Source: Candidatus Nanogingivalaceae bacterium
Lineage (GTDB): Bacteria > Patescibacteriota > Saccharimonadia > Saccharimonadales > Saccharimonadaceae
Reading direction: 5' to 3'
DNA length: 32,000 bases
NCBI GenBank assembly: GCA_015257795.3
Contig: CP072208.2
Location: 510,001 to 542,000, forward strand
Position 1 is the first letter of the stretch. Every line of letters begins with the position of its first letter. The position numbers and the translations under genes are program-made. Shown here piece by piece: positions 3,056 to 27,156 of the stretch. The notes beneath the pieces were generated by a model, which saw only the letters and a program-made list of their open reading frames with translations, was not told where the DNA came from and did no database searches.

Positions 3056-3544
3056 ATGATTAACCTCTTGATGCATGCGCTAATCTTTTGCATGCAGTTA
3101 TTAAATGTTGTTACTTTGGGTGTAGTGGATAACTTAGCAGTTGTCTATGGAGCACTCGTTCTCGCGACGCTCTATGTATTAGTTAAGCTAGATAAGCATT
3201 TTCCAATTTGCTTATTATGGCAAGAAGCTGGGCTATTTACTAAATCTCTAATCTTTGTAGGCTTAGTTCTAAATGCCCTTCCTACACCACTTTATTGGCT
3301 TGTTGGGATTTTTCTGATCATGTTGGCATTCTTTATTACGCCTACCAAAAAGAATGTGAAAGAAGCCAAGAAGCCTTCGCTGTTTTCGAAACTTAAAGGT
3401 GTTGTTTTCGAACACTATAACGAGAGTAACATAAAAAATAAGGCCACAAAAGTGACGGAAGCGTTTTCGAAGAAGGCAAAAAAACCTTCAAGCCCAAAAA
3501 AAGAAGAGGGCAAAAAAGAGTTTAAAAACCTCCCTCCTATTTAA
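3056..3544 (+). CDS. hypothetical polytopic membrane protein with Lys-rich C-terminal tail
   Basis: 162 aa, about 4 hydrophobic helices, then a KK-rich hydrophilic tail. GAGGGG SD 5 nt before the ATG. Has its own promoter and terminator. Confidence 0.7.
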   Translation: MINLLMHALIFCMQLLNVVTLGVVDNLAVVYGALVLATLYVLVKLDKHFPICLLWQEAGLFTKSLIFVGLVLNALPTPLYWLVGIFLIMLAFFITPTKKNVKEAKKPSLFSKLKGVVFEHYNESNIKNKATKVTEAFSKKAKKPSSPKKEEGKKEFKNLPPI

Positions 3545-3557
3545 AATTTTCCTTTTC

Positions 3558-3582
3558 TACCCCATTTTTTGGGGTATTTTTT
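3558..3582 (+). terminator. rho-independent terminator
   Basis: TACCCC / GGGGTA stem with 7-nt loop, then TTTTTT. Confidence 0.75.
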
Positions 3583-3633
3583 ATTTGTAAAAAACAAACC
3601 GCTTGCGCTTATTGCTTTTATATTATATAGGTA

Positions 3634-3662
3634 TTGACTTTTTATTGCCTTTGTGCTATAAT
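3634..3662 (+). promoter_or_regulatory. promoter TTGACT-17-TGcTATAAT for the 3811 gene
   Basis: Consensus elements. Gives a leader of about 140 nt that contains the 26-bp palindrome. Confidence 0.7.
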
Positions 3663-3756
3663 TCTAGCAGTTGACATATCATAATCACTACGATTTGTCA
3701 ATGAAGCTTAACAAGAATTGGGTTATTATGAGGTATTAATCGTGCCTCAATAGTCA

Positions 3757-3782
3757 TTATTTATTTTGGCCAAAATAAATAA
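3757..3782. repeat. perfect 26-bp palindrome TTATTTATTTTGG|CCAAAATAAATAA in the 5' leader
   Basis: Base-by-base check: 13+13 nt are perfectly self-complementary with no loop. Confidence 0.8.
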
Positions 3783-3810
3783 AATCTGTATAGAAAGGAT
3801 GGTGCAAAAA

Positions 3811-5280
3811 ATGATGACTATAACAGAAAAAATTAACAGAATTCTAGAACAACTTGAAGGGCTATGCAAGAGTAGCGAAGAAAAGGTATGGCTAGAAAGA
3901 GTTTGCGAAGAGGCGGCTAAGAAGCCTTCGGACGAAAAAGTGGCGTATCTTGAAGGCCAGCTCCAAGCACTACGTGATATTAAAAACGAAGAGCTTGAAG
4001 AAGAAGCTGAGCCTCAGGAAGAAACTCCTGTTCGCCTTCACACAAACTGGGTGATGGCTGCATTATTAGCTATTTGTGTAGTTGTTGTAATTGCATTTCT
4101 AGTTTTAGGAATGTTCGGCAAACATAAAGCTAACGATGTCAAAGCAGCCGACAGCAAAACGGTCAGCTCTCTGGTTCTTCCAAAAGAAGAATTCCAGGTT
4201 ATTGACTATAAAGTCGACGGCGACACTGTCGTCTATAACAGCGAAATTGCAAATACCCAACAAAAGGTGTTCGCAAACGGTTCAAAAGAGGATTCTCTTT
4301 CAACTAACGCTAATGATGCAGTTAACGAGATGGTTCAGTACATGAGCCACAACGCAACTGCGTTGAAAGAGAAAGCCATGACATTCGGTATTGTTGATAC
4401 CAATACTGATGTCAAGGACTGGCTCGCGAAAGGTAAAGACGGAAATCTTTACTACAACGAAAAAGGAAAAGATGTCTACTATCAGACAAAAGCTTTCCTT
4501 TCCCGGAGTCAAACCTCTTCTAAGAAAATGGAAGAGGGCTCAAATTACTATGCCACTGGAGTTAATAGCAAAGGTGACGTAGTAGTAAGCGAAAACTCAC
4601 AAAACCTCAGCGGACAAGAATACGTCGAAGTTTCAAATCCGAAAGGATCAACTGAGAAGTATTCTTATCGCGTACTTGTTTACTGTGGCAACACAGTAAT
4701 GCAAAGCAATAACATCCCCGGGGTTAAAACGGGTAAAGTAGAGATTCCTACAAAGCCTAATGAACCTGGAAAACCAAGTGAACCAGGCAAACCTGGTAAG
4801 CCAGACAAACCTGGAAAACCAAGTGAACCAGGAAAACCTGGTAAACCAGACAAACCTGGCGAAAGCAAGGTTGAGAAAAAAGACCCTAGTAAAGATCCAG
4901 CCAACCAAGGCAAAGCACCGGTTGGTGGTGGTCAAAACGATGGATCTCAAAATGGAGCAGAAACTTCTCAGGCTAGCTTGCCTGAGCAATACTCTGCTCC
5001 ATCAGCACCAGCGAACTCAAGCTCAGCTGCTCCATCACAAGATGCTCGCACTAGCGAACCATCTCAATGGACTGGAGCTGGAACAATTACGGACTCTAAC
5101 GGCACTACAACAGTAGCCGATAATGGAGCCGTAACAACCCCTGATAATCATCATTACGATGGTTTAGTGGGTCAATCCACTCCTGCAGTTGAAGCAGGAG
5201 CTAACGGGGTCACAACTCCAAGTAGCTCTGCCAACTTCGCAGGCAATGGCTCTATGAGTGAGCCTGCAATCGATGATTGA
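3811..5280 (+). CDS. hypothetical type-II membrane-anchored surface protein with ([15 protein letters not shown]) repeats and an S/T/A/N-rich tail
   Basis: The ORF is open from 3766 (TTG). ATG 3811 is preferred because GGATGGTG lies 6 nt upstream; 3799 is an alternative. Layout: about 90-aa charged helical N-terminus, one TM helix ([23 protein letters not shown]), then an extracytoplasmic domain. Confidence 0.75.
4762..4860 (+). repeat. in-frame 45-bp tandem repeat, about 2.2 copies
   Basis: Copy 1 at 4762-4806 and copy 2 at 4807-4851 differ at 3 positions; a partial third copy follows. Confidence 0.85.
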
Positions 5281-5303
5281 TTTTTTCAATAACGATTAGC
5301 ACA

Positions 5304-5361
5304 TTTTGAAAGTTAAAACTTTCAAATTTCACGCTAGGCGGTTTCCCGCCGCCTGGCTTTT
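5304..5361 (+). terminator. two tandem hairpins ending the 3811-5280 transcript
   Basis: TTTGAAAGTT-AA-AACTTTCAAA, then CTAGGCGG..CCGCCTGG followed by CTTTT. Confidence 0.7.
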
Positions 5362-5432
5362 CATTGATATCTCTTAATAACCCAATTCTGTGTTAGGTTT
5401 TAACAATTCGGCAAGCGAAGAAAAACAAAATA

Positions 5433-5461
5433 TTGACAGACAGAATTATGATATTTATAAT
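5433..5461 (+). promoter_or_regulatory. perfect consensus promoter TTGACA-17-TATAAT
   Basis: TTGACA at 5433-5438, TATAAT at 5456-5461. Confidence 0.8.
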
Positions 5462-5501
5462 TAATAAAATTTCTAATAAAGTGGAGATTAGAAGGGAGAA
5501 A

Positions 5502-7811
5502 ATGAGGGACCAAATGAAAAAACTCATTAATTTTATTAAAAACCATTCTGTAATCTCTGGTTCAATCTTGGCTGCAGTTATTGCTCCGGTTGCCGTTATG
5601 GCCTGGGGTCCAGCTCGACCATCATTTACTATTGAAAAACCAGCAGATTATATTACATTTAACTCAATCACAAATAACCCTGTTATTGGTGGTGACGAAA
5701 AAGACTTCGTTGGAATTCGTGAAGTTGGATCAAATGCTAACTGGACGAATAACATGAAAGTTCAAAACGGCAAAGAATACTATGTTCGAATTTACGTTCA
5801 CAACAACGCAGCTTCGAATCTAAATCTTGTTGCCGAAAACGTAGTTGCGAAACTTAACGTTCCAACAACAACTGCAAAAACCGTAACTGTTCAAGGTCAG
5901 GTTTCAGCTTCAAACGCAAAACCTAACACAGTTTGGGATGAAGCAACTTTTTCAAGTGATAATGACTTCAACTTGGCTTATGTTGCTGGTTCTGCCCTTT
6001 TCGAAAACAACGGAATGGGTACAACTAAACTTCCAGACAGCATCGTAAACAATACGGGTGCAACTCTTGGATACAGCAAACTTGACGGAAAAATTCCTGG
6101 ATGTTTTCAATATGCAGGTTACGTAACCGTTAAAGTTAAAGCTCAAGTTAACCAACCACAAGAGAAAACAGATATCGATCTTGCAAAAACAGTTCGAAAT
6201 AAAACAAATGGCGAAAAAACTTGGACTGAAACTGTAAGTGCTAAAGGTGGCGACACAGTTCAATTCCAAATTCACGCTAAAAACACAGGTTCTGCAGGAA
6301 TTCAGAACTTGGTAATTCGCGATATTCTACCAAAAGGTTTGAATTATGTTGCAGGTACAACAAAACTTTACAACACTTCAAACCCAAATGGCTTGAAAGT
6401 TAGCGATAACATTATTCAAAATTCTGGAATCAATATTGGTACATATCAAGCAAATGGCGACGCTTACGTACGTTTTGACGCAACAGTTGCAGCTGAAAAA
6501 GACTTGCCAGTTTGTGGAGACAACGTTTTGACAAACATCGCACAAGCAAGTGATCAAAAAATAGTTAAAAATGACACTGCTAGTGTACGGATCACTAAAA
6601 AATGTGATACTCCAAAACCTCAAACTCCAGCTTACAAATGTGACGCTTTAAGCTTAAATATTGTTCGAAAAGATGAAAAGCAAATCACTTATTCAGCTGA
6701 TACGAAATATTCAGTAAAAGATACAGAATTTACTGGAACAAAATATGTTGTTAAAAATTCTAAAGGTGAAGTTGTAGCTCAAAAAGTAATCAACAATGGT
6801 ACTAAATTTGAAATTACCGTTCCAAATGATGTAACTGAGAAATATACAATTATCTCAACAACCATGACTAAAAATGGTGAAAACACAAATGCAAATTGTG
6901 AAAAATCTTTTGAAACAAAAGCTCCAACAGTACCACCAACACCAACACCTAACAAACCTGAGTTGGTATGTAAAAACATCACAATCAACCAAATTTCTCG
7001 AACACGATTCGAATTCAATACTTCTTACACTGTAAATCACACAACATTTATCGGTGTTAAATACACCATCAAAGATGAAAGTGGTAAAGTTGTAATCGAA
7101 AAGACTGTAAACAATGGTTCGAAATTAACAGTTGATATCGAAATTGCTGGTAAATTCACAATTTCTTCAACAGTTATTACAAAAGATGGCGAGAATGCAA
7201 ATTCAAACTGTGTAAAAACTTTCGAAGTTAAACGAGATGAAAAACCTTCAATCGTTATTAAGAAAACTGTAAACAATCAAAAATTTGCTAAACTTGAAGC
7301 AAATACTGATTTCAACTATGAAATTACAGTATCAAACAACGGAAATGTTGATTTGAAAGATGTTGTTGTAACTGACCGAGCTCCTGTAAACATTAAATTC
7401 ATTAGCTCAGACAGCGGTAAAATTGAAAACAACATTTTGGTTTCAAAGATTGACTCTTTGAAGATTGGTGAAAGCAAAACTATCGTTATTAAATCTCAAG
7501 CAACTGCAACAGGTATGTCAGCCGTAAACACTGCTTGTGTAGATACTCCAACAATTCCTGGAGACAACGATGGTTGTGATAGCGCTAAAGTGGAAATTCC
7601 AAAGAAACAAACTCCACCAAGCCCAACACCAAACAACCCAACACCAAATGTTCCAACACCAAACAACCCAACACCAAATAATCCAGTACCAAGCGTTCCT
7701 TCAGAATTGCCTGAAACTGGTTCAGACGCCCTATCGGCAGTTCTTGGACTAGGTTCAATGGTAACTGCATTTGGTTACTACTTCGCAAGCCGAAAAGCTG
7801 CAAAATTCTAA
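5502..7811 (+). CDS. LPXTG-anchored cell-surface protein with two DUF11-like repeat domains and two tandem Cys-bracketed modules of about 95 aa
   Basis: ATG 5502 follows AAGGGAG; the 5433 TTG in the ORF track is the -35 box. N-terminal signal/TM segment. C-terminus is a P/T/N-rich stalk, LPETG (7707-7721), a hydrophobic helix and RKAAKF. DUF11-like segments start at DLAKTVRNKT... and IKKTVNNQKF... Confidence 0.9.
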   Translation: MRDQMKKLINFIKNHSVISGSILAAVIAPVAVMAWGPARPSFTIEKPADYITFNSITNNPVIGGDEKDFVGIREVGSNANWTNNMKVQNGKEYYVRIYVHNNAASNLNLVAENVVAKLNVPTTTAKTVTVQGQVSASNAKPNTVWDEATFSSDNDFNLAYVAGSALFENNGMGTTKLPDSIVNNTGATLGYSKLDGKIPGCFQYAGYVTVKVKAQVNQPQEKTDIDLAKTVRNKTNGEKTWTETVSAKGGDTVQFQIHAKNTGSAGIQNLVIRDILPKGLNYVAGTTKLYNTSNPNGLKVSDNIIQNSGINIGTYQANGDAYVRFDATVAAEKDLPVCGDNVLTNIAQASDQKIVKNDTASVRITKKCDTPKPQTPAYKCDALSLNIVRKDEKQITYSADTKYSVKDTEFTGTKYVVKNSKGEVVAQKVINNGTKFEITVPNDVTEKYTIISTTMTKNGENTNANCEKSFETKAPTVPPTPTPNKPELVCKNITINQISRTRFEFNTSYTVNHTTFIGVKYTIKDESGKVVIEKTVNNGSKLTVDIEIAGKFTISSTVITKDGENANSNCVKTFEVKRDEKPSIVIKKTVNNQKFAKLEANTDFNYEITVSNNGNVDLKDVVVTDRAPVNIKFISSDSGKIENNILVSKIDSLKIGESKTIVIKSQATATGMSAVNTACVDTPTIPGDNDGCDSAKVEIPKKQTPPSPTPNNPTPNVPTPNNPTPNNPVPSVPSELPETGSDALSAVLGLGSMVTAFGYYFASRKAAKF

Positions 7812-21907: not shown

Positions 21908-21918
21908 CTTAAACCAAA

Positions 21919-21946
21919 TAAAATAGCCTTTCGAAAGGCTATTTTA
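21919..21946. terminator. bidirectional terminator (rny / PilX-like operon)
   Basis: Palindrome AATAGCCTTTCGAAAGGCTATT flanked by an A-run and a T-run. Confidence 0.8.
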
Positions 21947-21948
21947 TA

Positions 21949-23178
21949 TTACTGGTTTTTACAGTTAACGTTCGAATTACTCAATCTTGTTACTGAAAAG
22001 TCTTTACAAATAGGTTCTTTTTCGTTTTTAGTTTGCGCTGAGAACAAAGGAACCGGAAAGCTAGTATCGTTAAATCCAATCCTACTCTCCACGCGCCTTA
22101 ACTGTGTGTTAGCACGACCAGTTGAATCAACTTTTGGCTGAACACCAGCAAAATCAACAACATTATCACCATTTAACAATTCAACTTCAAAGTTCGAATC
22201 ATTCATTAAAGGCGTTAGGCGCAAATATAGAACATCACGAGGATCGACACTTCGGCCAATATTTACCGTCGTTTGGCAAGCATATGTATTAGAATTCGCA
22301 TCCATTCTATCCGAACACCTTGTAAAAGTGTAGTCGGTAGTTGCATCTGAAGAAGAGTCATTTCTTCGAACCCTTGGCATATTTGGTGCATCTGGACTTA
22401 ATAAGCTACTACTATTACTGTTTACTGGATAAAAAAGCATTTCACTTGCACCGTTTTTATCATCTGGGTATGGCGTATCCATAATTGAAGACGACCTTTC
22501 AACGCCTGGAATATAACCATAGAATTGAGCTTTCAAAATAGCAGGTCGGTTTTGGTTGCGCCAGTTTCGTGAATCAATCCTTGGGCGTACCGATGGATTA
22601 CTTAATGAGTCTAATGCGATATTATTGCCATTTGTCATATTTTCTCTTGAATGCCATCGAATACGCACACGATTGAATGCTGTAGTACCCCTAAGATTAA
22701 TCACCGAAGGCGAACCGTCATTAGTTCTTCCTAGAAAATCAGCAGTATTCATTCTTAATTTTACACATGTATACGCCTGGTTTAAACTTGCATCGTTACT
22801 TGCTCCACCGGCTCCAGAGGTTGTTTGAATAATTGTTTCACTGTTAGCATTTCCAATTCCTGCTGTAGCTAAAACATAGCAACTATCACTCCGGATTGCA
22901 TCTCTCATAGCATTACAATCATAGTGCCCCCCTTCAAAATCACCTGTTCCAGATGGCCCACAGGCCGATCGGAAGATTCGCAAAAACCTTTTCGCGTCTT
23001 CAACGCCAGCCTGCGCACTATCGTAAGCACTCTGTGAAAGATCCAACTTACTAGCTTGTTCTTGATCTCGAAACATAAGCCTAAGGAAGCTTGCCGACAT
23101 AATCGAAACCAAAACACCAACAACAATAACGATAAATATCGAAACGCCACCTTTTTTAAAATTCTTATTACTCTTCAT
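21949..23178 (-). CDS. PilX/GspK-like pseudopilin-type protein (PilX N-terminal-like helix, no Glu5), 409 aa
   Basis: N-terminus KKGGVSIFIVIVVGVLVSIMSASFLRL...QSAYDSAQAGVEDA resembles the PilX_N family. 8 Cys. C-terminal GRANTQLRRVESRIGF. AAGGAG SD. Confidence 0.65.
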   Translation of the reverse strand: MKSNKNFKKGGVSIFIVIVVGVLVSIMSASFLRLMFRDQEQASKLDLSQSAYDSAQAGVEDAKRFLRIFRSACGPSGTGDFEGGHYDCNAMRDAIRSDSCYVLATAGIGNANSETIIQTTSGAGGASNDASLNQAYTCVKLRMNTADFLGRTNDGSPSVINLRGTTAFNRVRIRWHSRENMTNGNNIALDSLSNPSVRPRIDSRNWRNQNRPAILKAQFYGYIPGVERSSSIMDTPYPDDKNGASEMLFYPVNSNSSSLLSPDAPNMPRVRRNDSSSDATTDYTFTRCSDRMDANSNTYACQTTVNIGRSVDPRDVLYLRLTPLMNDSNFEVELLNGDNVVDFAGVQPKVDSTGRANTQLRRVESRIGFNDTSFPVPLFSAQTKNEKEPICKDFSVTRLSNSNVNCKNQ

Positions 23179-23187
23179 TGTTTCTCC

Positions 23188-25683
23188 TTAATATCGTACC
23201 GGAAGTTCCTTGGTATAAGTTGTTACGATCTTTCCTTGGCCACCAGATTGTGCTTGTCCCCACAAATAAGTATCTGCAGATTGTTTGATAATTTCTGCCG
23301 GCTCCGAAAGAGAACTGGCAGTTTTTCCATCAGAACCATGCGTTCGCCACAATTTGAGCGTATTAGAAAGTGTTCCACCCCGAATCTGCAACTGCTCGTT
23401 ACAATTTCCTGTTGTAACATTTTGTATATTTTGAAGACCATTTACAGCACAAGTGTTGATAGTTCCCTTAGCAATCAACCAAGCATCGATTCTTTTCACA
23501 TTTTGATCAATAGTGATATTTCCATCTGCAATAATTATTATCTGTCTAAAATCACTATCGCTATTTACGGTCCTATCATCATTGGTAATATCACTAATAA
23601 TCCGAAGGTTCTTACCATAAATAACCTTAGTTGTTCTGTCTGCACTAAAACCACCTATTTGCTCTGTATCATCATAAACATTAACTGTCATTTCTGAATT
23701 ATTTGTATTTTGTCGAGGAAATTTAGATGCAATCGAACTAATAACCGAATCAATACTTGGAGCTCCTTGTCCAAAATTACCTATTGAAGTATAGTTTTCA
23801 ATAGCTAATCGACGTGTGCTTTGTGAAGATTCTGTGCGGAAATTTCGAATATTTCCACCTGTTATAGCTTCATACTCAACCCAAGAACCTAATACTCCTT
23901 CTTTTGTTGGAGATAAGCTAGTTCTAATACCTGCGCGAGAAAATACACCATTTCCCCAGAACTGAACTTTTGGCTTTTTTACAACCTTAATACAGATTGG
24001 CGCACTGTGCCTCCACTGATTATTGTTTGCTTCTTGATCAGCCTTACTTTGTGTATCGCTCATCTTATATGGTGAAATTGAAAGCGCCACACAATACCTT
24101 GTTCCAGCTTCAGCTCCTTCTTCAATTTCAGGAATAAAGTCCGCAATTCTTGTATTTCTATCATACGATCTTCCAGAGCTATCTTCTCTAACAACTCTAC
24201 AATTTTCTAACACCTGATAAACTTCTGAGTAGAAATTGTTTGCAGCACAAGTATCACCGTTTTCGTTATCTCGCCTATTATTTACGGTTACGCGACCTTC
24301 CCTGGCAGCAGGAACGCGCCAAGTTGTAATTTTGTATCTTATCGGAGAAGTTCCCGTTCCGTTGTCAGGCACTTCAATTTCTTCACCATTATTTGGATCT
24401 GGTGGAATTCTACCATCGGTTGGCACATCAATATCACCACCCGAACAGTTTTTAATTTTATCTATCTTCACACAAGGAGTAACATCAAAATTATATGGAA
24501 CATATACACAAGCTTCATTTGTTCTTTGATTAAATCTGTTACGGTTGTCTGTACCTCCGGGCTGAGACTCAATACTGTACGCCATACTTGAACAAATAGT
24601 TTTTCCAGCCATTTGTTTGGTAACTTTAAATATTTCACCATTTTCATTTGTACTGTTAACCGTATCTGTTAAAAGACCTTGGTTAATTAAAGTTTTACGA
24701 GATTCATAGCCATATCTTCGCCAAATAAATCCACCATGATTACTAATAGTTGTATCACCACTACCATTATTTCTAAATGTAGTATAAGATCCAAAACCTT
24801 GAACATCAGGCTTGTTGAAATCTTTACCGATTACAGTATGTTTAAACGAAACCCACTGGCCAACTTTTGCAGTTTGTGGATTGTTTCGACCATTGCTTTT
24901 AAATCTTGTATCATCAGATCTAATGCTTTGGCTCGAATTCAATACCGCAGCCTTGGTGCTTGACTCAACATTGAACTTAATTGGTGCGCTAATACGGATG
25001 CTTATATCGCGACTATAGCAGTTTCCAGGATTAGTAATAGGATTATCAACATACTCATACGGGTCTTTATCGGCGGGGTAAGGTGGCACGCGCTCTCCCG
25101 ACTCTGCCTTAGCGCATTGGTGGAGAGAAAATGTAAGAAAATCACCATCTTTAAACTTATTAATAGCTTCTGACTTAACAATTACCGTTATGACGCCAGT
25201 ACGTTTTAATTCCCCTGGTTGAGCACCATAGCTATGGGAAGCTCCTTGCCCAGCCTCGCCTTTTGCTTTGCCAGGAGAAGTGATAAGATATTTAGCATCA
25301 TGACGGCCCGCATTAATCCTAACATTAACTGCAGAGCCTGATTGATATGTATTCTTACAAGGTAAAACAGCAGTGTTTATATAAAAAACCCTCTTATCCT
25401 CACTAAGCTCAAAGTTCTTCTTTTCATAAATGGCGTTAATGTTTTTATCGCCATTTTCATCAGAAGAGATCCAGTTTGCCGTTGCAATATAATTATCACC
25501 ACCATATTTCTCGAAAAATGTCGTGCCTCCACCGTAAAGAACCTCATACATTGTAAATTTTCTACACGCATCTCGCAACTGTCTTTGCACAACTCCAGGT
25601 ACGTCTGCACTTGCGCCTTTAGAAAAAGATATAACGCCAAATAGGGCTAGCGCTATAGCTAAAAAGATTTTTTTACTATCCAT
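23188..25683 (-). CDS. large secreted protein of unknown function (831 aa) with repeated Cys-bracketed modules
   Basis: ATG 25683 is preceded by GAGGA at 8-nt spacing and overlaps the upstream stop by 8 nt. Signal peptide KKIFLAIALALFGVISFSKGASA. 14 Cys by my count. No catalytic motif recognised. Confidence 0.75.
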   Translation of the reverse strand: MDSKKIFLAIALALFGVISFSKGASADVPGVVQRQLRDACRKFTMYEVLYGGGTTFFEKYGGDNYIATANWISSDENGDKNINAIYEKKNFELSEDKRVFYINTAVLPCKNTYQSGSAVNVRINAGRHDAKYLITSPGKAKGEAGQGASHSYGAQPGELKRTGVITVIVKSEAINKFKDGDFLTFSLHQCAKAESGERVPPYPADKDPYEYVDNPITNPGNCYSRDISIRISAPIKFNVESSTKAAVLNSSQSIRSDDTRFKSNGRNNPQTAKVGQWVSFKHTVIGKDFNKPDVQGFGSYTTFRNNGSGDTTISNHGGFIWRRYGYESRKTLINQGLLTDTVNSTNENGEIFKVTKQMAGKTICSSMAYSIESQPGGTDNRNRFNQRTNEACVYVPYNFDVTPCVKIDKIKNCSGGDIDVPTDGRIPPDPNNGEEIEVPDNGTGTSPIRYKITTWRVPAAREGRVTVNNRRDNENGDTCAANNFYSEVYQVLENCRVVREDSSGRSYDRNTRIADFIPEIEEGAEAGTRYCVALSISPYKMSDTQSKADQEANNNQWRHSAPICIKVVKKPKVQFWGNGVFSRAGIRTSLSPTKEGVLGSWVEYEAITGGNIRNFRTESSQSTRRLAIENYTSIGNFGQGAPSIDSVISSIASKFPRQNTNNSEMTVNVYDDTEQIGGFSADRTTKVIYGKNLRIISDITNDDRTVNSDSDFRQIIIIADGNITIDQNVKRIDAWLIAKGTINTCAVNGLQNIQNVTTGNCNEQLQIRGGTLSNTLKLWRTHGSDGKTASSLSEPAEIIKQSADTYLWGQAQSGGQGKIVTTYTKELPVRY

Positions 25684-26107
25684 TAATAGCATCCTCTACG
25701 CTATTAATTTGAACCCCAGAAGGGTCCATTCTATATATATTGCGTATATTTTCAATTTTAAGACTTGGGCTTTGGCCTTTTTCTACCAATTCTTTTAGAG
25801 TTTTATATGTTTCTTCTTGATTTTTTGTACCAATCGAGAACCTTATCGCTACACAGTTAGCATCTTTCTCGTTTCCCGACATTTTTGCAATTTCTTCACC
25901 CAAAGCTTTTGAGTTTTTCTCATATGCATCTTTTGGCCCTTTTATATTGTTGTATTTATCGATAATTTTATCATCACAAACTGTTCCAACAGAGCTCTTT
26001 ACTTTAGTTATATCGTTGTTGTATCTAACAAACTGAAAAATGTTTGCTCCCAAACTTAAAATAGCAATAGTTAAAACTAAGCCAAGCGTTATTTTATGCC
26101 TCTTCAT
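25676..26107 (-). CDS. small N-terminally anchored extracytoplasmic protein (143 aa), first gene of the operon
   Basis: ATG 26107 (MKRHKITLGLVLTIAILSLG...) follows GGAAGGA. 2 Cys. Confidence 0.7.
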   Translation of the reverse strand: MKRHKITLGLVLTIAILSLGANIFQFVRYNNDITKVKSSVGTVCDDKIIDKYNNIKGPKDAYEKNSKALGEEIAKMSGNEKDANCVAIRFSIGTKNQEETYKTLKELVEKGQSPSLKIENIRNIYRMDPSGVQINSVEDAING

Positions 26108-26157
26108 TTTATAATTTCCTTCCACCTTTATAAAAAAATATAGTTTTCCTAAGCCCC

Positions 26158-26186
26158 ATTATAAACAAAAGCGTTATAAAAATCAA
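26158..26186 (-). promoter_or_regulatory. operon promoter TTGATT-17-TATAAT
   Basis: Reverse strand: TTGATT (26186-26181), TATAAT (26163-26158). Confidence 0.7.
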
Positions 26187-26197
26187 GTTTTTATAAC
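26173..26197. promoter_or_regulatory. perfect 10-bp inverted repeat GTTATAAAAA-N5-TTTTTATAAC between the divergent promoters (candidate operator)
   Basis: Left arm 26173-26182, right arm 26188-26197. Overlaps the -35 of the minus-strand promoter. Confidence 0.45.
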
Positions 26198-26214: not shown

Positions 26215-26243
26215 TTGACATTTTTTATATTTTATGGTATTAT
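26215..26243 (+). promoter_or_regulatory. promoter TTGACA-17-TGgTATTAT for the 26302 gene
   Basis: TTGACA at 26215-26220, TATTAT at 26238-26243. Confidence 0.75.
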
Positions 26244-26301
26244 TTAAGCAGAGTTGATTTTGTACTTTAAAAAACACATTAGATAGATAGGGGTGACAAT
26301 T

Positions 26302-27156
26302 ATGTCTACTAACAATATTAAAAAATTTGCGAAATATGGTCTAGTTTTGGTTGCAGCTATTACAATTGCAACAGCTGCTCAAGCTCAACAAGGTACTATG
26401 CAAAAGGTATATGCTGACGAAACTACTACTCAGTTTACTGCAGATAATTCTCGTATGTTTTATCTGAAATACACCTTATCAGATCAGCCTGAAATAACTT
26501 GGATGCAAGGAGCTGTAGTTGGTCCTAATGGGTATACAGTACAGGCACCTGACGATGTTGATGGGTATCCATACTACACAATAACAGGACCTCAAGGTAA
26601 CCAGTACTCTGTCGGTGATAAAATCACTACGGAAGAACCTGGACTGTTTGGTCACACCAACCCAGAAGATGATGCTTTAAATTATCTTTACTACAAAACA
26701 GATCCTAATGCTTCAACAAGTGAGGCACCTGCGCCAAGTACTTCACCTTCAACAAGTGAGGCAGCAAACAAGGATCATGCAGTAGAAAAACCATCTCAAA
26801 AAGCAGATGATAAAACTACTGCAACTGATAAAGCTAAAAACGCTACCGATAAGAAAACCGATAGCAAAAAAGCTAAAGATCAGGTGAAAACTGAAAAATC
26901 TAAAGGTGCTACTGTAGCAGCTAAAGATGATTCTACAAGCAAAAAAGCTGAAGCGTCTGCTCCAGCAGAACAAGCAAAAGCCGTAAAAGCTAACACTAAC
27001 GCGAATTCGCAAGACAATATTGTTAAAGAAGCTGATGGTACAGTAGATACCGCAGCAGTTCATAATGACAATAATGGTGGAGCAATCCTAACAATGTTAG
27101 GATTAGTTAGTGCAGCTTTTATTGGGCTGTTCAAAAATAAAAAAGAAGAAAAATAA
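26302..27156 (+). CDS. secreted surface protein with K/A/T/D-rich low-complexity region and a C-terminal hydrophobic anchor, no LPXTG
   Basis: ATG 26302 lies 6 nt after AGGGGTG. Signal peptide ...ATAAQAQQ. C-terminus GGAILTMLGLVSAAFIGLFKNKKEEK. Confidence 0.75.
   Translation: MSTNNIKKFAKYGLVLVAAITIATAAQAQQGTMQKVYADETTTQFTADNSRMFYLKYTLSDQPEITWMQGAVVGPNGYTVQAPDDVDGYPYYTITGPQGNQYSVGDKITTEEPGLFGHTNPEDDALNYLYYKTDPNASTSEAPAPSTSPSTSEAANKDHAVEKPSQKADDKTTATDKAKNATDKKTDSKKAKDQVKTEKSKGATVAAKDDSTSKKAEASAPAEQAKAVKANTNANSQDNIVKEADGTVDTAAVHNDNNGGAILTMLGLVSAAFIGLFKNKKEEK

Follow-up and report, generated by a model that had tools for sequence, protein, structure and literature searches.

Organization of the three-gene module

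The 32-kb stretch of chromosome analyzed here (hereafter the window, always meaning the whole stretch) comes from a Candidatus Nanogingivalaceae bacterium and contains a module of three genes that we connect with type IV pili (T4P). The reference chromosome, CP076102.2, is complete (691,584 bp) and belongs to Candidatus Nanogingivalaceae of the oral Saccharibacteria group G6. The open reading frame (ORF) listing showed genes 1, 2 and 3 on the minus strand, tightly packed in one direction, and the deposited gene calls of CP076102.2 gave exactly 143, 831 and 409 aa for their products (Table 1). Alternative starts would extend gene 1 to 149 aa (a GTG inside its Shine-Dalgarno sequence, as given by the ORF lister) and gene 2 to 834 aa (an upstream ATG). 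Genes 1 and 2 overlap by 8 nt (ATGGATAG, as read in the sequence) and genes 2 and 3 are separated by a gap of 9 nt (GGAGAAACA). Shine-Dalgarno-like sites (AGGTGGAAGGA and GAGGA) are visible in the sequence, and the exact numbers of Cys in the three products are 2, 14 and 8, respectively. This layout had been described in a preliminary description of the same DNA, and both the sequence and the deposited calls bore it out. The description also assigned a single promoter to the three genes. The corresponding site is present in the sole intergenic region upstream of them, but it is a consensus match alone, in a region that holds 20 such sites against 14.5 ± 3.8 expected.

No pilus machinery, major pilin or sortase was found among the genes of the window, as had been noted before. 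In addition, neither the window nor the 10 kb beyond PolA contained T4P genes, which places gene 3 outside T4P locus one. The rest of the window has a housekeeping content (BipA, FolD, MurB, SHMT, MurA, ClpB/C, RNase Y, PolA and TrxB).

Gene 3 and the PilX1 family

The context of gene 3 homologs was determined by scanning GTDB species representatives, in which at least 522 loci were confirmed; the best 80 of them (L001-L080) were examined. In 53 of these 80 loci (L028-L080), designated type A, the gene 3 homolog ends the T4P operon, and the order PilB-PilT-PilC-PilA-PilD-p273-mp204-mp235 followed by the gene 3 homolog was found in 53/53. The operon-terminal homologs are 32-37% identical to gene 3 over residues ~1-400 (E values from 1e-53 to 1e-69). 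Pfam analysis of the operon in the complete TM7i genome identified two T2SSE, one T2SSF and one Peptidase_A24 domains, as well as N_methyl on three pilins. The T4P-1 operon thus encodes five "pilins", the last of which is the largest, is atypical and belongs to the gene 3 family. PilX1 of TM7x has been described as the largest pilin of T4P locus one, with a beta-jelly-roll domain (Grossman et al., PMC11623550). Since the terminal, largest-pilin slot of the gene 3 homologs matches that description, we assign them to the PilX1 family.

The loci L001-L027 and the window copy constitute type B and lie outside the T4P operon. A neighbor-joining tree resolved type B as a single clade, whose sister group consisted of the type A copies of Nanogingivalis-like genomes, and two genomes contain both types: RZZT01 (L024, L052) and CAYXHY01 (L025, L036). 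A total of 60 positions are conserved at ≥90% in both types, and they include the leader Gly, the whole N-terminal segment with DLSQSAYDSAQAGVEDAKR and all 8 Cys. By phylogeny, type B appears to be a duplicated copy, a paralog that left the T4P operon, and this operon seems to be the ancestral as well as the dominant context of the gene 3 family. Gene 3 itself is best regarded, by its sequence, as an orphan type B paralog of the published Saccharibacterial PilX1 family. Therefore, the module is not "of unknown type", as it had been called. T4P locus one has been reported as retained in G6 Nanogingivalis, and reports on cultivated relatives describe T4P-1 as essential and link it to contact with the host.

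The gene 3 family is a large one: 1,915 Saccharibacterial clusters (50% identity) were retrieved in an exhaustive search. Of these, 333 had E ≤ 1e-30, and almost all were 370-420 aa long and aligned over their full length. The N-terminus of the gene 3 product consists of a basic leader, a conserved Gly that precedes the hydrophobic segment and constitutes a candidate PilD site, and a hydrophobic helix including the near-invariant segment mentioned above. The residue at +5 is Phe in 67/67 family members (motif G/[GA]VSxF), in agreement with the previously noted lack of Glu5, and the canonical pilins of the T4P operon show G/FTxIE, with Glu5 in 41/41, 44/44 and 46/46 sequences. A signature without Glu5 is known from tip subunits such as GspK and PilX. 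The AlphaFold model of gene 3 (predicted local distance difference test score, pLDDT, 86; predicted template modeling score, pTM, 0.82) shows one helix at residues 4-73 (pLDDT 91-97) and a beta-rich domain, whose structural neighbors in PDB and BFVD were weak matches to jelly-roll capsid proteins alone. The 8 Cys are kept in 94-100% of 140 sequences.

It must be noted that profile searches did not place gene 3 in any described pilin family. The window protein had no match in Pfam or NCBIfam in single-sequence searches. Its earlier assignment to the PilX_N family (PF14341) did not hold, there being no match even at E ≤ 10, also when the N-terminus was searched alone. Among 88 diverse relatives, PilX_N was the most recurrent Pfam family, although all matches were below threshold (7/88, best E = 0.0055). 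N_methyl (PF07963) gave no match either, GspK was absent from both the Pfam matches and the PDB fold matches, and the family profile matched nothing among PDB sequences. The profiles of PilA, p273, mp204 and mp235 match one another as pilins and do not cross-match with the gene 3 family. Because the PilX_N profile is unmatched, the pilin assignment of gene 3 rests on operon context and fold. On these grounds, the proposal that gene 3 is a tip-type minor pilin is favored by the 53 type A loci, where full-length homologs of gene 3 close the T4P operon.

Two further observations were made on type A loci. A convergent gene for a tyrosine recombinase of ~305-330 aa lies almost always directly 3' of the T4P-1 operon in L028-L080 (for instance L055:9204-10199, minus strand), and the TM7i copy matches Phage_integrase with E = 7e-43. 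In L069 (~8001) and L074 the gene 3 homolog is 449-458 aa long and mp235 is missing or reduced to a 76-aa ORF, which may reflect a fusion or a frameshift of the last two pilin genes.

Gene 2, a secreted protein family paired with gene 3

As read from the sequence, gene 2 encodes a protein with a putative Sec-type signal peptide and without an anchor. The corresponding residues (1-26) are disordered or helical in the AlphaFold model (pLDDT <50), and some orthologs have an N-terminal membrane anchor in place of the cleavable signal. No sortase sorting signal was found, the protein ending in ...KELPVRY without a hydrophobic tail; as indicated above, the window has no sortase gene. The window protein did not match Pfam or NCBIfam, nor did eight orthologs of ~30% identity match Pfam, and there was no match to PDB sequences at E ≤ 10. 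In particular, the profile of the PilY1/PilC C-terminal domain was matched neither by the window protein nor by 8 divergent orthologs, and neither enzymes nor toxins turned up as homologs in Pfam, NCBIfam, PDB sequences or the fold search. Confident homology to a characterized enzyme or adhesin family, which would speak against the earlier interpretation of the 831-aa protein, was likewise absent from Pfam, NCBIfam and PDB sequences. With its clear domain logic, gene 2 defines an undescribed protein family.

This family is strictly paired with type B gene 3 in both directions. Among the type B loci with upstream sequence, 26/26 have gene 2 directly before gene 3, compared with 0/53 of the type A loci. 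Conversely, in a metagenome scan anchored on gene 2, gene 3 follows in 58 places, and the apparent exceptions to the pairing were frameshifted long-read contigs. The conservation of the trio expected from the preliminary description thus holds for genes 2 and 3 and only in part for gene 1, which is present in most loci and not in all.

Conservation along gene 2 is very uneven. With respect to L001, whose RNase Y and PolA are 99 and 97% identical to those of the window, residues 27-230 of gene 2 are only 56% identical, compared with 89% for residues 401-640 and 82% for residues 641-831. At greater distance (clades L015-L026), either the N-terminus shows 10-25% identity or longer regions stand in its place, and the C-terminal 450-560 aa are still alignable. 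Ten Cys (364, 392, 404, 413, 479, 495, 531, 564, 745 and 761) are kept in 9-10/10 divergent orthologs. In addition, the protein ends in a motif found in every clade, with the consensus T-x-[YS]-[TS]-[KT]-E-L-P-x-R-[YFL], the Firmicute and distant environmental copies included. Residues 27-230 are therefore a candidate for host specificity and for the receptor-binding end, given their 56% identity beside an RNase Y and a PolA that are 97-99% identical; the C-terminal region is a candidate docking domain for gene 3.

The AlphaFold model of gene 2, fed by a homolog search with a divergent profile (14 hits, one clade), reached a pLDDT of 54; residues ~30-335 alone are moderately confident and form tandem beta-sandwiches. 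The fold matches are generic Ig/FnIII-like adhesin or stalk proteins (RbmA, CFA/I subunits, Cpe0147 and integrin legs) and are driven by the N-terminal part; a beta-propeller such as that of PilY1 was not seen in the poorly modeled C-terminal half. Three recurring Cys modules had been proposed in this protein. The strings are real and contain conserved Cys pairs, but they are not internal repeats, given that the pairwise hhalign probability was 0.2-1.6% and self-BLAST was empty. Kinship of gene 2 to p273, mp204, mp235 or gene 3 was also discarded (hhalign probability <2%).

The gene 2 family is also linked to T4P, independently, by its adjacency to pilM. The most distant homologs (L140, L141 and L143, 27-30% identity) have no adjacent gene 3, and each is preceded by a small TPR protein with a transmembrane (TM) anchor. 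In L141, two such TPR/gene 2-like pairs are followed immediately by PilM (PF11104, E = 2.5e-38) and a PilN-like gene, and there is no gene 3 homolog in the fetched stretch. This arrangement occupies L141:3602-12830 (metagenome contig Ga0247804_10000089), where the tandem TPR proteins have 196-199 aa and the gene 2-like proteins 893 and 922 aa, one of them with a DUF11 domain.

Gene 1

The product of gene 1 is a bitopic membrane protein. It is anchored by an N-terminal TM segment, and its extracytoplasmic domain (~110 aa) has 2 conserved Cys, in the motifs VG[ST][VI]C and D.NC. An alignment of 12 orthologs, including that of Enterococcus, showed no pilin-type N-terminus, and there was no match in Pfam or NCBIfam. 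Most type B loci, though not all, have the gene upstream of gene 2, and its product is probably an accessory factor. A fusion of gene 1 to gene 2 in the long orthologs (1042-1139 aa) was considered and rejected, the similarity being limited to the TM segment. A relationship with the TPR proteins that precede distant gene 2 homologs was rejected as well (hhalign probability 5%).

Mobility and occurrence outside Saccharibacteria

The module moves between chromosomal sites. Its sites in Saccharibacteria are unrelated: it is next to RNase Y and PolA in the window, next to RecA or arginine deiminase elsewhere, while in N. gingivitcus CMJM its neighbors are FtsA/FtsZ and a ribosomal-protein/RpoA block. 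Some relatives have two modules ~15 kb apart on one contig, namely L103 and L130 (ERZ773018.44), L127 and L131 (BNJS01001397.1), and L137 and L146 (BNJT01001056.1). The second module has a longer, N-terminally anchored gene 2 (~1010-1140 aa), has no gene 1 and lies upstream of greA; in CP076102.2 the syntenic site upstream of GreA is empty (L153).

Type B modules were also found on three contigs labeled as Firmicutes: two from Streptococcus (L021 and L022; a Streptococcus sp. metagenome-assembled genome and S. suis AP_SS21) and one from Enterococcus quebecensis LMG 26306. The E. quebecensis contig (NZ_MIKB01000002.1, 107 kb) has the full set of genes 1, 2 and 3, in this order, at L023:4565-9167, with products of 178, 953 and 402 aa. 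The module is flanked there by genes for a resolvase, an LPXTG/MucBP protein, DUF2806, MT-A70, a coupling protein of a type IV secretion system (T4SS), Replic_Relax and a large serine recombinase, and the MT-A70 gene of this element shows 75.5% DNA identity to an E. faecalis plasmid. In view of these neighbors, which are of the integrative and conjugative element (ICE) type, and of the match to the E. faecalis plasmid, contamination of the Firmicute contigs with Saccharibacterial DNA was judged unlikely. As far as sequence can tell, the Firmicute copies look like the result of ICE-borne horizontal transfer across phyla. A plasmid collection searched with gene 3 and a phage collection searched with gene 2 yielded no homologs. 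Linkage of the module to T4SS genes within Saccharibacteria was looked for and was not seen among the type B loci.

Proposed function and alternative explanations

Starting from the observed homology, the operon context in relatives, the strict pairing, the conservation pattern and the mobility of the module, we infer that the trio is an accessory and exchangeable tip cassette for the T4P-1 filament, working in a PilX-PilY1-like manner. We give this interpretation a probability of roughly 0.55. The filament would be encoded elsewhere in the Saccharibacterial genome. The leader and hydrophobic helix of gene 3 would insert it in the membrane. In a GspK/PilX-like way, gene 3 would then top a priming complex together with those minor pilins of the T4P-1 operon that carry Glu5, so reaching the pilus tip. 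After Sec-dependent export, gene 2 would dock on the jelly-roll domain of its cognate gene 3 by means of its Cys-rich C-terminal half, with the invariant ELPxR[YFL] tail perhaps taking part in the docking, and its hypervariable beta-sandwich region would face outward as an adhesin. Gene 1 may keep gene 2 at the membrane, or act as its chaperone there, until gene 2 is loaded. The preliminary description had suggested a module for the pilus tip or for host attachment, away from its machinery, with gene 2 as a partner in a PilY1-like role in spite of having no PilY1 motif. The homologs in the T4P operon, the strict pairing, the adjacency to pilM and the hypervariable N-terminus, which resembles a receptor-binding domain in this respect, support that reading; the functions themselves are presumed.

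Several points weigh against this interpretation. Gene 3 fails both PilX_N and N_methyl, and no PilD signal was predicted in TM7x PilX1 (Grossman et al., PMC11623550). Therefore, pilin processing and incorporation are putative even for the operon-linked copy. The C-terminal half of gene 2, to which the docking is attributed, is mostly modeled with pLDDT <50, and several type B clades lack gene 1. Finally, the presence of the module in ICE-like elements of Enterococcus and Streptococcus, hosts with no matching T4P on record here, implies that it may work without a Saccharibacterial pilus.

This last point leads to a surface complex independent of any T4P, in which gene 3 would be a signal-anchored stalk that holds gene 2 as a fixed adhesin; the helix of gene 3 would pass through the membrane and the wall zone, leaving the jelly-roll head exposed. 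The portability of the module, which is found without adjacent machinery at varied chromosomal sites and in ICE-like elements of E. quebecensis and Streptococcus, agrees with such a complex, as do the lack of a predicted PilD signal in PilX1 and the failure of gene 3 and the canonical pilin profiles to cross-match. However, the leader, the Gly, the hydrophobic segment and the helix with DLSQSAYDSAQAGVEDAKR are equally conserved in type B and in the copies of the T4P operon, which is hard to explain for a mere anchor. Given also that this operon is the ancestral and dominant context of the family, and that distant gene 2 homologs adjoin pilM, we consider a pilus-independent complex unlikely. 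Less probable still is that gene 2 is a secretion substrate (a toxin, matrix protein or effector) released by the T4P acting as a piston similar to that of a type II secretion system (T2SS), with gene 3 as a dedicated tip or loading pseudopilin, as in the pairs TcpF/TcpB and CofJ/CofB. CofB-CofJ and TcpB-TcpF are precedents for tip pilins that bind a secreted partner, and gene 2 has indeed a Sec signal peptide without an anchor, is strictly paired with a GspK/PilX-like pilin devoid of Glu5, and ends in an invariant peptide that could be a recognition tag. Nevertheless, searches of Pfam, NCBIfam, PDB sequences and folds revealed no kinship of gene 2 to enzymes or toxins, its tandem Ig-like N-terminus and its hypervariability resemble an adhesin or a stalk, and some of its orthologs are anchored in the membrane by their N-terminus.

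A role in conjugation, as an adhesin by which the module would aid the contact of a T4SS with recipient or host cells, is suggested by the position of the E. quebecensis module, between the LPXTG/MucBP protein and the genes for MT-A70, the T4SS coupling protein, Replic_Relax and the large serine recombinase, and by the report of Saccharibacterial T4SS clusters with pilin-like subunits (PMC10633639). Since no Saccharibacterial type B locus adjoins T4SS genes, the parent family belongs to the T4P operon, and the module may be mere cargo on the ICE, this role seems very improbable to us. Returning to the tip cassette, a broader version of it can be put forward only tentatively. The pair of genes 2 and 3, with or without gene 1, might be a self-contained mobile "tip-adhesin cassette", composed of a PilX1-like capping pilin and its cognate partner of the new family, which on being added to a resident type IV filament changes what the cell sticks to. 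Present in several copies per genome in oral Saccharibacteria, and having crossed phyla into conjugative elements of Streptococcus and Enterococcus, it could serve as a portable determinant of host or partner range.

Comparison with known systems

One of the closest known systems is PilX1 of TM7x (Nanosynbacter lyticus, T4P-1 locus one; PMC11623550, PMC12206443), which would belong to the same family as gene 3 through the link provided by TM7i and 52 other type A loci. Both have a long N-terminal helix, a jelly-roll-like domain, no canonical PilD/Glu5 signature and capsid-like structural neighbors. Unlike PilX1, gene 3 of the window is diverged (32-37% identical to the operon copies), lies outside the T4P loci and is always coupled to a secreted partner of 820-1140 aa, which the operon copy does not have. 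The likeness to PilX-PilY1 (fimU-pilVWXY1Y2E of P. aeruginosa; M. xanthus) consists of a minor pilin without Glu5 encoded beside a large Sec-exported protein that is not a pilin, in which, as in gene 2, a conserved C-terminal part is joined to a variable N-terminal adhesive part. It is a functional resemblance only, since there is no sequence or profile match to PilX_N or PilY1/PilC; moreover, the gene order is reversed, the partner being upstream, and the other minor pilins are encoded apart from the cassette. The T2SS tip pseudopilin, GspK, shares with gene 3 a leader Gly, a hydrophobic helix without Glu5, the condition of largest subunit and an extra domain inserted on the pilin scaffold. 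Nonetheless, the extra domain of gene 3 is jelly-roll-like and not the alpha-domain of GspK, and there is no Pfam or PDB-fold match between them.

In the type IVb pairs CofB-CofJ and TcpB-TcpF, a minor pilin with a lectin-like beta domain binds a secreted protein by a short terminal peptide, which is N-terminal in CofJ. The tail of gene 2 would be analogous in this regard, although there is no homology. The modular minor pilins of Streptococcus sanguinis (PilB with vWA, PilC with a lectin module; PMC8179133) belong to T4P of the Gram-positive type and carry an adhesive module grafted onto a pilin, comparable to the jelly-roll, lectin-like head of gene 3. In the module described here, by contrast, gene 2 is the main candidate for a variable adhesive component, as a polypeptide of its own and not as a fusion to the pilin.

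Among the structures by which the ultrasmall epibiotic Saccharibacteria might recognize and select bacterial hosts, T4P alone have so far been found by genetic means to be of importance. The G6/Nanogingivalaceae lineage has an extra and rapidly diversifying PilX1 paralog locked to an uncharacterized secreted partner, and gene 2 is a concrete candidate for a host-specificity determinant in these epibionts. The apparent mobility of a pilus-tip module across phyla, on ICE-like elements of Firmicutes, is also of interest. PilX1 itself is already published. In the literature searched we found no description of an orphan PilX1 paralog with a new partner family that is multi-copy, relocates and occurs on ICE-like elements of Firmicutes.

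Other features of the window

The coordinates of the module and of the neighboring features are provided in Table 1.

Table 1. Features of the three-gene module and of its surroundings, in positions of the window.
Feature	Positions	Strand	Basis
Gene 1, 143 aa	26107-25676	-	ORF from ATG behind AGGTGGAAGGA
Gene 2, 831 aa	25683-23188	-	ORF
Gene 2 putative signal peptide, residues 1-26, MDSKKIFLAIALALFGVISFSKGASA/DVPG	25606-25683	-	Read from sequence
Gene 2 hypervariable N-terminal region, residues 27-230, rich in beta-sandwiches	24994-25605	-	Identity comparison and model
Gene 2 Cys-rich C-terminal region, residues ~270-831	23191-24876	-	Ortholog conservation
Gene 2 C-terminal motif TTYTKELPVRY-COOH	23191-23223	-	Conserved in every clade
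Gene 3, 409 aa	23178-21949	-	ORF
Gene 3 leader MKSNKNFKKG/GVSIF and N-terminal helix (residues 4-73)	22960-23178	-	Model and conservation
Gene 3 globular beta-rich domain, residues 74-409, jelly-roll-like	21952-22959	-	AlphaFold model
Promoter candidate, sigma-70-like TTGATT-17-TATAAT, ~50 nt upstream of gene 1	26158-26186	-	Consensus scan, 10/12 match
Intrinsic-terminator-like hairpin, perfect 13 bp and T-run, 3' of gene 3	21918-21947	-	
Divergent gene, 287 aa (296 aa in deposited calls)	26293-27156	+	
Promoter-like TTGACA-17-TATTAT (TG-extended) of the divergent gene	26215-26243		
Cluster of unannotated envelope proteins	3056-7811	+	
HTH_3-EPSP_synthase/MurA-type fusion, 509 aa	13722-15251	+	

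The hairpin 3' of gene 3 is inside the 41-nt convergent gap between the end of rny (21907) and that of gene 3 (21949), and this single structure could terminate both transcripts. The product of the divergent gene upstream of the module has a signal peptide, a long low-complexity region rich in Ala, Lys, Ser and Thr, and a C-terminal hydrophobic anchor followed by a KNKKEEK tail, without LPXTG. This gene, placed at 26302 in the preliminary description, had been thought to share the synteny of the trio. It is present in the closest relatives only and is thus outside the conserved module; its identity of 56-67% in those relatives indicates fast evolution.

The window contains a second cluster of unannotated envelope proteins, formed by a multi-pass membrane protein of 162 aa, a 504-aa protein with PGKP/PSEPGKP collagen-like repeats and a tail rich in Ser, Thr and Ala, and a 792-aa protein with DUF11/DUF7507 surface-repeat domains. 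Lastly, the 509-aa product listed at the end of Table 1 combines an N-terminal HTH_3 domain of the XRE type with a full enolpyruvyl transferase domain of the EPSP_synthase/MurA type, which is an unusual architecture.

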